Shown here piece by piece: positions 31,053 through 46,041 of a stretch of DNA of 64,000 nucleotides. Source of the stretch: Burkholderiales bacterium (lineage in GTDB: Bacteria; Pseudomonadota; Gammaproteobacteria; Burkholderiales; SG8-39); NCBI GenBank assembly GCA_035632415.1, contig DASQGW010000187.1:246-64245 (forward strand). Reading direction: 5' to 3'. The position numbers and the translations under genes are program-made. The first letter of the stretch is position 1, and the number at the start of each line of letters is the position of its first letter. The notes under the pieces are model-generated. The model did not search any database. It was not told where the DNA came from and was given only the letters and a program-made list of their open reading frames with translations.

Positions 31053-34000
31053 TTAGCGGACCGGCAGCGTAAAGCTGAAGGTCGAGCCCTTCCCGGGCAG
31101 GCTGTCCACGCGGATCGCCCCGCCGTGGAGTTCTACGAATTTCTTCGTCAGTGCGAGCCCGAGGCCCGTGCCTTCCGCCTTGCGGGTGTAGTCCCGCCCC
31201 ACCTGCTTGAACTCCTCGAAGAGCACACCCTGATCCTCGGGGGCGATGCCGATGCCGGTGTCGCGCACTGCGATCTCGACGTTTGCCGTATCCAGCTTCG
31301 CGCTCACATCGACCCGCCCGCCATCGGGCGTGAACTTCACGGCGTTTGACAAGAGATTCAACAGGATCTGCTTCACCTTGCGCTCATCGGCCTGGAACTC
31401 CCCAAGCCGCGCATCGACCTCGGCGGCGAGCTGGATGCCATGGCGCTGGGCGCGCTCGCGGATGAGCGTCATCGCGTTCGAGATCGCCGTGGGCAGATGG
31501 AAGCGGGAGAGCTCCAGCTCCATCCGCCCGGCCTCGATCTTCGATAGGTCGAGGATGTCGTTGATGAGCGAGAGCAGGTGCCGCCCGGATTCGTGGATGT
31601 CCTTGAGGTAATCCGCCTGCTTCTCGTTCACCTCGCCGAACATCTGGTCGATCAGCACCTCGGAGAAGCCGATGATGGCGTTGAGCGGCGTGCGCAGCTC
31701 GTGCGACATGTTGGCGAGGAACTCCGACTTGTGCTTGTTCGCCACCTCGAGCTGGGCGCTCTTCTCCTGGATCTCCTTGAAGAGCCGGACGTTCTCAATG
31801 GCAATCACGGCCTGGTCGGCGAATACCTTGACGAGCTCAATTTGCTTGTCAGTAAAGGGCCGGGGAGCACCAACGCGAGAAAGACTGAGCACGCCTACCG
31901 CCGCGCCGTCCCGCAGCATCGGCACTGCGAGAATGCTGCGGAAGCCGCCGGCGCCGGCAATGTCGTGTCTCTTGTATTCCGGGTCGGCGAGCACATCGGG
32001 AATATGCACAGTTACGCCGTCTACGAGCGCCCGCCCAGCCGCCGACGTCCTGTCGACCGCGATGGGCGCACGCGCGAAGACGTCGCGACTGACTCCTGGA
32101 GCTTGTTGGATTCCGTCCGGCACGACGAATGCCTCCGGAACATAGGCGCCGCGATCGTCGGGACGGAAGATGAATCCCCGGTCCGCATCACAAAGCCGGC
32201 GAGCATTAGCGAGGACAATCTCTAGGACGGGTTGAAGGTTGTATGTGGTGCGGCTGATGACCTTGAGGATTTCGCTCGTGGCGGTTTGCTGTTCGAGCGA
32301 TTCGCCGAGATCATTGTTCCGCGCTTGGAGCTCGTTGAAGAGGCGCACGTTCTCGATGGCGATGACCGCTTGATCGGCGAACGTTGTAAGAAGATCGAGC
32401 TCATGTTCTGTAAAGCTCCCCGGCTTGGCCCGCGCAACATTTATTAATCCGATTACCTCTCCATCGCGCAACATCGGAATGAAGAAAGCGCTTCGCCAGC
32501 CGCGAGAGAGCGCTACAGCGCGCCCCTCATCGGTCATGGTTGGGTCTACTCTCGCGTCGCTAATGTGCGCTGGCTTTTTAGACTTGATTGCTCTGCCAAT
32601 GGGCGCGCCTTCTGGTATGCGGCGCGGATAAAAACGGCGCGCTGCATCATCTCCGTCCGGATCTGTCGTCGTAAGAGCCGACAGGTGCACCATATCGCCC
32701 TCCACGCGCAAGACCGCAGCCGACATTCCATTTATCAAGCTCACCGCGCTTTTTGCTATCGCATCGAGGACCGGTTGAACATCCGATGGCGATGCGGCGA
32801 TGACCTTAAGAATTTCGGCCGTCGCCGTCTGCCGCTCAAGCGCTTCCTTCGTCTCGTTGAAGAGCCGCACGTTCTCGATCGCGATCACCGCCTGGTCGGC
32901 GAATGTCTTGATGAGCTGAATGTGGTGCTCTGACCAGGGTCCGGGGGTCACGCGCGTCACATGGATCAGGCCGACGGGTGTTCCCTCGCGCAACAGCGGC
33001 ACATAAAGAATGCTTCTGTATCCCCGAACGCGCGCAACTTCGCGGGATCTTCCAATGCTCGGGTCAGCTTCGGTATCACTGGTGTATTGCGGCAACCTTG
33101 TCCGTATGGCTTGTTCAATGATCGGACGGTCATGGATGGCGAGTGGGAACAGACTCTTCAGCGCGTCATCGGCGGGCCCGCTCACCGTCGTGAAAGCGGC
33201 GAGGTGAAGCTTGTCGTCGACCATGCGCGATACGATGCACGAATACCCGCCGACCAGCCGCAGCGCGCTGTTCACTATCGCATCGAACACCGGCTGCACG
33301 CTATCCGGCGAGCTCGATATGACCCCCAGGATTTCGGCGGTAGCAGTCTGCCGCTCGAGCGCTTCCTTCGTCTCGTTGAAGAGCCGCACGTTCTCGATCG
33401 CGATCGCGGCCTGGTCAGCGAAGGTCTGCAGCAGATCTACCTGCCGCTGCGGTGTCTCGCCAGGCTCGCGCCAGCAGACCACCATCGCACCGACCGGCTC
33501 GCCTTCCCGCAGCATGGGCACGCCGAGCATGCGGCGCCAGTGCCCCGTGATGGCCGAAGTCGGGTCGTAGTGCGGATCAGCAGCCGCGTCGGGCAGCGTG
33601 ACGATCGAGCGCGAAAGGATGGTGCGGCCACTCATCAGCTTGTCGCTCGGCGGCGAGGGATAGATGTTGGCAAAGTAGTCCTTCGCCTCCTGCGTCCAGT
33701 TGTAGGTCGCGCCGAGGTGCACCTGCTTGCCGTCAAAGGGAAATACGGCTGCGATCTCCGCTCCGCAGAGGTTCACAGCGCTCCCGAGGATGGCGTCGAA
33801 CACCGGGTCGACGTCAGTCGGCGAGCCGCTGATAACCTTGAGAACCTCCGCCGTTGCCGTCTGGCGCTCGAGCGCCTCCTTCGTCTCATTGAAGAGACGC
33901 ACGTTCTCGATCGCGATCACCGCCTGGTCGGCGAACGTCTTGAGGAGACCGATCTCCTGCTCGGTGAAGCCTCCGGGCGCGACGCGGCTCAAGGTGATCA

Positions 34001-46041: not shown

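Follow-up and report, generated by a model that had tools for sequence, protein, structure and literature searches.

We describe a cluster of six genes on the minus strand of a 64-kb stretch of DNA (hereafter the window) from a metagenome-assembled genome (MAG) of an uncultured soil bacterium of the order Burkholderiales. The cluster occupies positions 31053–46041, the region analysed here, and contains three predicted sensor histidine kinases with arrays of GAF domains (HK1, HK2 and HK3), two single-domain response regulators (RR1 and RR2) and a receiver domain (REC) fused to a class III nucleotidyl cyclase (REC-cyclase). The listing of open reading frames (ORFs) and their translation confirmed all six genes. 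HK1 (43159–46041) has a GTG start and encodes 960 residues, in which Pfam finds a dCache_1 domain, a HAMP domain, two GAF domains, a HisKA and a HATPase_c domain. It is followed by RR1 (42776–43150), 124 residues with Response_reg alone, and by the REC-cyclase (41751–42776), 341 residues with Response_reg and Guanylate_cyc. HK2 (35652–41729) encodes 2025 residues with ten GAF domains, HisKA and HATPase_c, RR2 (35281–35655) again 124 residues with Response_reg alone, and HK3 (31053–35273) 1406 residues with two PAS_3 domains, five GAF domains, HisKA and HATPase_c. Gene order and domain content are exactly those described in an earlier note made from the sequence alone, and so are the junctions: HK1 and RR1 are separated by 8 nucleotides (nt), the start of the cyclase gene overlaps the stop of RR1 by 1 nt (TAATG), a 21-nt gap lies between the cyclase gene and HK2, the start of RR2 overlaps the stop of HK2 by 4 nt (ATGA), and 7 nt separate RR2 from HK3. 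The ATGA overlap implies translational coupling of HK2 and RR2, and the tight spacing of all six genes is compatible with co-transcription. No sigma-70-like promoter was found in a scan, such scans being uninformative at 65% G+C, and terminator-like sites inside the genes occur at a background frequency (16, against 11.2 ± 3.6 expected from shuffled sequence) that is likewise uninformative at this base composition.

HisKA and HATPase_c match all three kinases with E values between 1e-19 and 1e-31, and all kinase catalytic motifs, GTGLGL included, are present in each of them. HK1, HK2 and HK3 have the features expected of HisKA-type sensor histidine kinases. HK1 consists of a first transmembrane helix, a periplasmic dCache_1 domain (residues 51–256), a second transmembrane helix, the HAMP domain (312–364), an S-helix, two GAF units (386–547 and 556–718), HisKA (735–802) and HATPase_c (849–959). 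The S-helix, located between HAMP and GAF1, has the ERT signature described for this element (KVEERTAEL; PMC1592074). Both HK2 and HK3 are soluble kinases, which leaves the earlier picture of one membrane-bound Cache kinase and two soluble GAF-array kinases intact, and GAF domains are the sole sensory domains of HK2. No receiver gene follows HK3. Consistent with the same note, Pfam detects no REC or HPt domain above threshold in any of the three kinases and no DNA-binding response regulator in the cluster, of which the cyclase is the sole enzymatic output. The kinase cores are of two types. Those of HK1 and HK3 are 87% identical over 241 residues, including DHp helix 1 after the phospho-accepting His, and shared partners are therefore probable. 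The core of HK2 is 46–48% identical to the cores of HK1 and HK3 and differs in DHp helix 1 just after the His. When scored with the NCBIfam model of DivJ, the HK1 and HK3 cores reach 228 and 235 bits and the HK2 core 155 bits, with a cut-off of 1000.

RR1 has a complete acidic pocket together with Asp52, Thr82 and Lys104. Its best solved relative is DivK (1m5t; E = 7.7e-32, the runner-up having E = 4e-20), as is that of RR2 (E = 8.7e-27), and the two receivers, previously termed CheY-like, are rather DivK-like. With the only DivK-type model in NCBIfam they score 60 (RR1) and 58 bits (RR2) against a cut-off of 160; their resemblance to DivK is real, but it does not suffice to place them in that family. 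Among solved structures, the cyclase REC is most similar to D1, the first receiver domain of PleD (E ~ 1e-37). The REC matches positions 1–135 of the 457 positions of the NCBIfam PleD model with 182 bits (cut-off 474), and the second REC and the GGDEF domain are both absent from the protein according to Pfam and NCBIfam, which places it outside the PleD family. Since the DivK, PleD and DivJ scores all lie below the family cut-offs, we regard these likenesses as resemblances and not as memberships; the NCBIfam search of the cluster proteins yielded partial, sub-threshold matches only. RR1, RR2 and the RECs of both the cluster cyclase and a paralogous REC-cyclase described below keep the E/D-D, D(I/V)..P, T and KP motifs at the expected places, and Response_reg matches the cluster and paralogue receivers with E values of 1e-26 to 1e-31. 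All four are predicted to be phosphorylatable receiver domains.

The REC-cyclase comprises the REC (residues 1–125) and a catalytic domain (about residues 155–341), which is recognised by Guanylate_cyc (E = 3.9e-19) and whose closest solved structure is that of Pseudomonas aeruginosa CyaB (3r5g; E = 7e-33). In the alignment to 3r5g the metal-binding Asp residues (FFDMRGF, AGDAV) and the transition-state Asn and Arg (NLAARL) are all present, and the domain is predicted to form a catalytically competent class III homodimer. The base-specifying residues are unusual. Adenylyl cyclases have Lys and Asp or Thr at the base-recognising positions, and guanylyl cyclases have Glu at the first and Cys, Ser, Thr, His, Ala or Gly at the second (PMC4215837). 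CyaB and CyaC contain Lys (DKFVGD) and Thr (DYTIIG), whereas the cluster cyclase contains Arg (ERFAGD) and Ala (DYAAIG). This pair departs from the adenylyl pattern at both positions; compared with the guanylyl pattern, its Ala is compatible and its Arg replaces the Glu, the Glu that precedes the Arg being out of register with IDEFMGD of Cya2. The pair thus fits neither known class and the product is not predictable from the sequence. Arg and Ala are kept in at least 104 of 120 orthologue clusters, and in the wider clade of these cyclases the first position is R, H, K or Q and the second A, S, G or T. The intact metal and transition-state residues and the conservation of the protein at 83–100% over 120 clusters argue for a functional enzyme under strong purifying selection.

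We compared the cluster with its relatives using gene tables of long contigs and the annotation of 88 loci, designated L001 onwards; counts at the species level refer to 80 GTDB loci, and the presence of the core defined below was scored automatically with a conservative criterion. A protein of a MAG labelled 'Burkholderiales bacterium' is 100% identical to the cyclase, and more than 120 cyclase clusters at 83–100% identity come from metagenomes and MAGs. All relatives found by scanning GTDB species representatives are MAGs as well. A core of three genes, encoding a dCache-HAMP-GAFn kinase, a single-domain receiver and a receiver-cyclase in this order, is present in the close relatives L001–L013 and in at least 38 of the 80 species-level loci, with Binatia, 'delta proteobacteria', Xanthobacteraceae and Dormibacterota among them. 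The phylogenetic profiling that had been suggested for the six-gene arrangement thus recovers this core widely, but shows the genes downstream of it to be variable. HK2-RR2 is present in L002–L005, L007 and L011, is rearranged to a position upstream of HK1 in L023, and is lacking in L001 and L013 as well as in most of the more distantly related loci with the core. In the position of HK3, L007 has a PAS2-GAFn orthologue, and L001 and L013 have a PAS-less kinase with five GAF domains and an HK1-type core that is not accompanied by a receiver. Both HK2-RR2 and HK3 are accessory elements, gained or lost from one relative to the next.

Among the Burkholderiales relatives an RR2-like gene follows every complete HK2-type kinase, and downstream kinases with an HK1-type core (in the window, L001 and L013) never bring a receiver gene of their own. 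From these pairings and the two types of kinase core we infer two modules: module A, in which HK1 and HK3 would act on RR1 and the cyclase receiver, and module B, in which HK2 would act on RR2. The earlier proposal that all three kinases feed the cyclase is an oversimplification, the conserved unit being HK1–RR1–REC-cyclase. In L001–L005 and L007 the interval between crp and HK1 contains one or two genes for PF04392 (ABC_sub_bind) periplasmic binding proteins, which immediately precede the dCache kinase gene; such genes are absent from the window and L006, and tblastn found no remnant in the window. In the genomes that have it, the PF04392 binding protein could deliver a ligand to the dCache domain.

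The 17 GAF units of the three kinases (two in HK1, ten in HK2 and five in HK3) were delimited by anchoring on conserved helices. They are 160–171 residues long and, as had been stated, belong to one subfamily with shared N- and C-terminal helices. Units 1–5 of HK2 are encoded at 41112–41600, 40599–41087, 40074–40574, 39522–40028 and 38997–39497, units 6–10 at 38481–38972, 37941–38435, 37425–37916, 36921–37400 and 36384–36875, and those of HK3 at 33891–34391, 33378–33866, 32859–33353, 32337–32834 and 31779–32291, all on the minus strand. Conservation is concentrated in the N-helix (QTATxEILxVIS..D.QPVF) and the C-helix. Pairwise identity among the 17 units is 25–54% with a mean of 38%, and unit 10 of HK2 is an outlier (25–32%). 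The repeats between units are 60–77% identical in DNA, values which, with the protein identities, rule out recent tandem duplication and indicate that the array is old.

A model of a single unit shows a confident GAF fold with a pocket (pLDDT 93), and in an AlphaFold2 model of two units residues 144–189 form one continuous helix, with pLDDT 72–76 over the linker. The GAF subfamily has no solved member: its profile scores at most 43 bits in the PDB, against 93–222 bits for the window's own units. The top matches of a fold search, TePixJ and PDE2A among them, are generic GAF domains with 12–24% identity, for which reason we rejected ligand assignments from this search, and the likeness to the cAMP-bound Lcd1 GAF domain is at the level of the fold only (19% identity). 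An NKFDE-like motif (N[KR]...F..[DE][DE]) occurs in none of the 17 units, and the suggestion that the GAF domains return the cyclic nucleotide signal to the kinases finds no support in the sequence. The invariant Cys of bilin-binding GAF domains is absent, and five of the 17 units lack Cys altogether; the commonest one, which stands where helix 2 ends (RLC, unit position 34), is present in nine of 17. No invariant His column exists in an alignment of 16 units, which contain one to five His residues each.

When 1.84 billion cluster representatives were searched with a profile of 16 units, 146,268 matched at E ≤ 1e-3, of which 19,537 reached E ≤ 1e-30. Among the top 150 family representatives, 66 carry at least ten units and the maximum is 17, in a 3673-residue protein of the cultured Variovorax robiniae (WP_340333471.1); Sulfitobacter sp. 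SK011, likewise cultured, has a protein with 14 (WP_162798259.1). At orthologous positions HK1 has 1, 2, 3, 4, 5 or 8 units and HK2 has 4, 5, 6, 10 or 13. Ten GAF domains in one kinase, which the earlier note had called extreme, are thus a high number, yet neither unique nor the maximum. The spacing of the units follows a simple rule. Measured between the last residue of ENxRLF and the following QTAT, the linker is 8 or 15 residues at every junction in the window (8, 8, 15, 8, 8, 15, 8, 8, 15 in HK2), and in 151 family proteins 533 of 796 linkers are 8 residues long, 255 are 15 and 6 are 22, with two exceptions. The steps are exact heptads. Moreover, 62 of 78 family proteins have the same distance between their last GAF unit and the phospho-accepting His. 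Linkers that differ by whole heptads would keep the helical register from the first unit to this His.

The arrays change quickly. Between the window and L006, the closest relative, with a cyclase 98% identical to that of the window, the Cache, HAMP and kinase core regions of HK1 are 92–100% identical (92–96% in a second comparison), while exactly one GAF unit is present in only one of the two proteins, the junction falling within AIAIENV|RLF. This one-unit difference is the product expected from unequal recombination at the conserved helix. In the same comparison the core of GAF1 has a nonsynonymous divergence (dN) of 0.35 and a ratio to the synonymous divergence (dN/dS) of 0.42, whereas its flanks have dN of 0.025–0.046 and dN/dS of 0.04–0.12; dS is 0.82 in the core and 0.37–0.71 in the flanks. 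Because dN is about ten times that of the flanks and dS is only modestly raised, faster amino-acid evolution is the better fit, and gene conversion from a distant paralogue is disfavoured. Most units have no one-to-one orthologue even in relatives whose cyclase is 85–87% identical. We therefore abandoned unit-by-unit orthology between arrays, in which the best matches reach 40–60%, no better than paralogues of the same genome, so that the histories of single units are not reconstructable. Unit number and unit cores change quickly between relatives, and the helices and output domains are fixed.

The gene divergent from the cluster (46496–47131, plus strand) encodes a Crp-family regulator with cNMP_binding (2.6e-24) and HTH_Crp_2 domains in Pfam. 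Its phosphate-binding cassette, FGEVTLDGGPRSAS (FGE...PRSAS), is intact, and its sequence is that of a cyclic nucleotide monophosphate (cNMP)-binding Crp/Fnr regulator. It is not the equivalog of Escherichia coli CRP (107 bits, cut-off 266 in NCBIfam). The position of the gene is conserved in all four of the close relatives with 10-kb flanks (L001, L002, L006 and L007), and throughout the Burkholderiales clade a Crp gene is usually close to the three-gene core. This regulator is probably the reader of the cyclase product. An imperfect palindrome of the GTGA..TCAC type, GTGATGTGACGAATTCAC, lies at 46440–46480 on the plus strand, about 35–50 nt upstream of the crp start; it adjoins a TTGACA-like hexamer, and its spacing is unlike the E. 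coli CRP consensus. We do not claim autoregulation of crp, the palindrome in this interval being imperfect and wrongly spaced. Upstream of HK1, at a distance of 117 nt, is a small ORF (46159–46374, minus strand) that carries a strong Shine-Dalgarno sequence (GGGAGGG) and encodes a predicted single-pass membrane protein of 71 residues with no Pfam match. By tblastn the protein is 86% identical in L006 at the equivalent position, with weaker matches in the crp–HK1 interval of L002 and L003 and a weak one in L007, and the ORF may be the first gene of the cluster. At the other end, the convergent interval between a thiolase gene and HK3 (30796–31052) contains a GC-rich hairpin, GGCCGGACTCTCCGGCC, a short hairpin beside the HK3 stop and a very acidic ORF of 49 codons on the plus strand.

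The window is unusually rich in second-messenger genes and holds four class III cyclases. The paralogous REC-cyclase (47705–48790, minus strand; Pfam) is 60% identical to the cluster cyclase in the REC and 59% in the catalytic domain, has His and Ala as its base-specifying pair, and has no kinase gene nearby. Directly upstream of it, 16 nt away, lies a gene for a Zn-alcohol dehydrogenase (48807–49910, minus strand), and an aldehyde dehydrogenase gene (49962–51389) is divergent from this pair. The arrangement of dehydrogenases and a second REC-cyclase is retained in relatives, the closest of which have the second receiver-cyclase preceded by the Zn-alcohol dehydrogenase, together with the aldehyde dehydrogenase and the ferredoxin-cyclase, and it suggests a link between alcohol or aldehyde metabolism and cNMP signalling. 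The ferredoxin-cyclase (51390–53039, plus strand) combines a class III cyclase with a 2Fe-2S ferredoxin domain and carries Gln in place of the Lys, and the fourth cyclase (60132–61481, plus strand) is a protein of 449 residues with a C-terminal cyclase domain. Further signalling genes encode a multi-PAS-GGDEF-EAL protein of 1306 residues (10091–14011, minus strand), a PAS-GGDEF protein (61310–63334, plus strand) and, at the window edge, a fifth receiver domain (63338–64000, minus strand). A stand-alone CAP_ED protein with an intact phosphate-binding cassette is encoded at 55672–56124 on the minus strand, directly downstream of an 886-residue ABC transporter with fused membrane and ATPase domains (region 55672–58800, minus strand). 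The Crp regulator and the CAP_ED protein are thus where the earlier note had placed them, and the five receivers that it counted are present; from its position behind the transporter gene, the CAP_ED protein may regulate transport rather than read the signal of the operon.

The anatomy, conservation, residue content, linker quantisation and evolutionary rates described above are observations; all phosphotransfer routes, cyclase activation, product identity and GAF ligands are matters of inference. We consider it somewhat better than an even chance that the locus encodes a branched two-component pathway with a cyclic-nucleotide enzymatic output. HK1 would autophosphorylate on binding of a periplasmic ligand, the signal passing through HAMP, the S-helix and the GAF units, and would pass its phosphate on to RR1 as well as to the cyclase receiver. 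The latter, once phosphorylated, would alter the geometry of the cyclase dimer and hence its activity, by analogy to PleD and to AphC-CyaC of Anabaena; activation of a class III cyclase by kinase phosphorylation has been reported for AphC-CyaC (PMC4284465). The cNMP would be read by the neighbouring Crp regulator and possibly also by the CAP_ED protein at 55672. RR1 could compete for the phosphate as an acceptor or, in the manner of DivK, modulate the kinase allosterically, HK3 would most likely feed cytoplasmic PAS and GAF inputs into RR1 and the cyclase receiver, and HK2-RR2 would form a separate cognate pair kept in the same operon. The GAF arrays would be chains of modules joined by single continuous helices in which the register is preserved.

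Several observations weigh against this branched pathway. Outside Burkholderiales the receiver just upstream of homologous REC-cyclases is closer to RR2 than to RR1, with a likeness to RR2 of 54–58% in Xanthobacteraceae, so that HK2-RR2 may also address the cyclase, which would blur the division into two modules. In HK1 of L006 (about 8900–8990 of that locus) the H-box reads SQELRTPL in place of SHELRTPL, the phospho-accepting His being replaced by Gln; this is either a sequencing or assembly error or a kinase-dead variant, in which case kinase activity would be dispensable there. The Arg/Ala pair makes both the activity and the product of the cyclase uncertain. As to the proposed reader, a canonical CRP box (TGTGA-N6-TCACA with up to two mismatches) is absent from the crp–HK1 intergenic region, and near-matches to it in the window number 4, fewer than the 11.6 expected by chance. 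Finally, a dN/dS of 0.42 in the GAF core fits relaxed constraint equally as well as changing ligand specificity.

All three kinases might instead, in line with the earlier note, converge on the cyclase receiver, so that one extracellular and two cytoplasmic inputs control one cNMP output while RR1 and RR2 act as phosphate sinks. The arrangement of six genes with gaps of at most 21 nt suggests one transcript, HK2-RR2 stays linked to the core even where it is rearranged (L023), and RR2-like receivers lie directly upstream of REC-cyclases in Xanthobacteraceae and 'delta' genomes. However, the HK2 core shares only 46–48% identity with the other two, which are 87% identical to each other, DHp helix 1 after the His included; HK2 is translationally coupled to its own receiver; and L001, L013 and the majority of the more distant core-bearing loci have no HK2-RR2. 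We judge such convergence unlikely. Less likely still, in our estimation quite improbable, is that the cluster consists of separate two-component systems that are merely co-located, with the cyclase receiver served by an unlinked kinase, or with a degenerate cyclase that has a regulatory role only. The crowding of the window with four class III cyclases, the PAS-GGDEF-EAL and PAS-GGDEF proteins and five receivers would allow this, the REC-cyclase at 47705 shows that such a protein can occur with no adjacent kinase gene, and the base-specifying pair is non-canonical. Yet at least 38 species-level genomes from several phyla have the order kinase, receiver, REC-cyclase with overlapping or nearly overlapping junctions, and the cyclase has intact metal and transition-state residues and is conserved at 83–100% over 120 clusters.

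On a separate axis, the GAF arrays could, instead of sensing ligands, form a structural, length-tunable coiled-coil rod that serves as a spacer, as a scaffold for oligomerisation or as a sensor of mechanical or thermal stimuli, the real inputs then entering only through the dCache and PAS domains or the unit adjacent to DHp. Almost all conserved positions lie in the two helices, NKFDE and invariant Cys or His residues are lacking, and the GAF1 core evolves at a dN/dS of 0.42 beside flanks at 0.04–0.12. Likewise, the system is retained while the unit number at orthologous positions varies from 1 to 13, the linkers are strictly heptad-quantised, and fungal group III hybrid kinases employ poly-HAMP arrays comparably (PMC7643160). 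A pure spacer, however, would not need about 165 folded residues per step, the units keep a complete and confident GAF fold with a pocket (pLDDT 93), this fold is maintained across the 19,537 cluster representatives at E ≤ 1e-30, and HK2 has no other sensory domain. We therefore regard the rod as possible but doubtful. A bolder combination, in which the arrays are an evolvable multi-input 'sensor rod' and the Arg/His-Ala receiver-cyclases make a nucleotide other than cAMP, seems to us a long shot. Each fast-evolving unit could bind a different metabolite, with the heptad-registered helix summing the inputs mechanically onto DHp, and gain or loss of units by recombination at the conserved helix could rewire specificity on short timescales; the product could be cGMP or a pyrimidine cNMP that is read by the linked Crp regulator. 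If this combination were true, the Arg/His-Ala clade would represent a new kinase-controlled second-messenger branch in soil bacteria.

The features of the locus that deserve attention are its copy-number-variable, heptad-quantised arrays, the fast-evolving cores of the units and the Arg/His-Ala pocket of its cyclases. The subfamily abounds in multi-GAF kinases (146,268 proteins at E ≤ 1e-3), none of them studied or structurally solved, and the cluster sets three of them beside a measurable cyclase output and a likely Crp reader. The natural variants with 1 to 13 units at one position provide a ready test series, and the linkers supply a testable rule for the passage of a signal through ten domains. 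The conserved core exhibits the wiring logic of DivK and PleD outside the Alphaproteobacteria, with a mononucleotide cyclase and a non-canonical pocket. Even with an ordinary mechanism, the impression that ten GAF domains are exceptional is corrected.

In literature searches we found no characterised multi-GAF kinase of Proteobacteria and no characterised receiver-cyclase triad, the literature on multi-GAF proteins being concerned almost exclusively with cyanobacteriochromes. Nor did the NCBIfam search, with its sub-threshold scores, or the PDB search, with matches of at most 43 bits for the GAF units, yield a characterised homologue. The cluster can also be called undescribed in the sense that it is uncharacterised, but it is built of well-known parts with recognisable wiring. 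Cyanobacteriochromes, the tandem-GAF cyclases CyaB1 and CyaB2 and the phosphodiesterases PDE2 and PDE5 also have serial GAF domains with long helices upstream of an output domain. In contrast to these, the cluster units have no conserved bilin Cys or NKFDE motif and score at most 43 bits against solved GAF domains, and arrays of the subfamily reach 10–17 units in non-photosynthetic Proteobacteria. In its design logic HK2 matches the fungal group III hybrid kinases Nik1/Os-1, which are soluble and whose N-terminal sensor consists of more than five copies of one helically linked module, HAMP (PMC7643160). The HAMP repeat, however, is about 50 residues long with no pocket, the fungal proteins are hybrid phosphorelay kinases, and the repeat regions are non-homologous.

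Linkage of cyclase genes to a Crp-family reader has precedents. In Rhodospirillum centenum the gcy genes are linked to cgrA, which encodes a product-binding Crp-family protein (PMC4681086), and in Sinorhizobium the cyclases CyaD1, CyaD2 and CyaK are linked, genetically or functionally, to the Crp-family reader Clr (PMC10127613). The cyclases of these pairs are neither fused to receivers nor preceded by a kinase and a receiver, and a CRP box was found upstream of R. centenum gcyB and is not present at the cluster described here. We treat gcy-cgrA as an analogy and not as a homologous system, gcyB and gcyC being annotated as hypothetical and described as non-catalytic cyclase subunits.

Among characterised cyclases, P. 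aeruginosa CyaB (3r5g) has the metal and transition-state residues and the arm region in common with the cluster enzyme. CyaB is controlled through a MASE2 domain in the membrane and not through a receiver, and its Lys/Thr pair (DKFVGD, DYTIIG) stands against Arg/Ala (ERFAGD, DYAAIG) in the cluster. CyaC of Spirulina and Anabaena combines receiver, GAF, kinase and cyclase domains in one polypeptide, whereas the cluster has separate proteins and a DivK-like partner, Arg/Ala in place of Lys/Thr, and far longer GAF arrays. The catalytic domain of CyaC is among the solved relatives of the cluster cyclase (1wc0, 1wc1; E ~ 2e-18), GAF and receiver domains are involved in both systems, and CyaC is likewise a class III cyclase (Lys/Thr, IIIb lineage) tied to two-component phosphorylation, AphC being reported to phosphorylate and activate it (PMC4284465). 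The nearest likenesses of RR1 and RR2, of the cyclase REC and of the HK1 and HK3 cores are DivK, PleD D1 and DivJ of Caulobacter, in which, as in the cluster, the gene of a single-domain receiver lies directly upstream of and is coupled to the gene of a receiver-nucleotide cyclase. In Caulobacter, where the divK-pleD operon works with the kinases DivJ and PleC, several kinases share the same two receivers. Unlike that system, the cluster resides in a betaproteobacterium with no link to cell-cycle genes, its kinases carry dCache, PAS and GAF inputs, and its output protein has one receiver domain instead of two and a class III mononucleotide cyclase instead of GGDEF. We would class the cluster as a class III cyclase under two-component control, wired in the manner of DivK and PleD.

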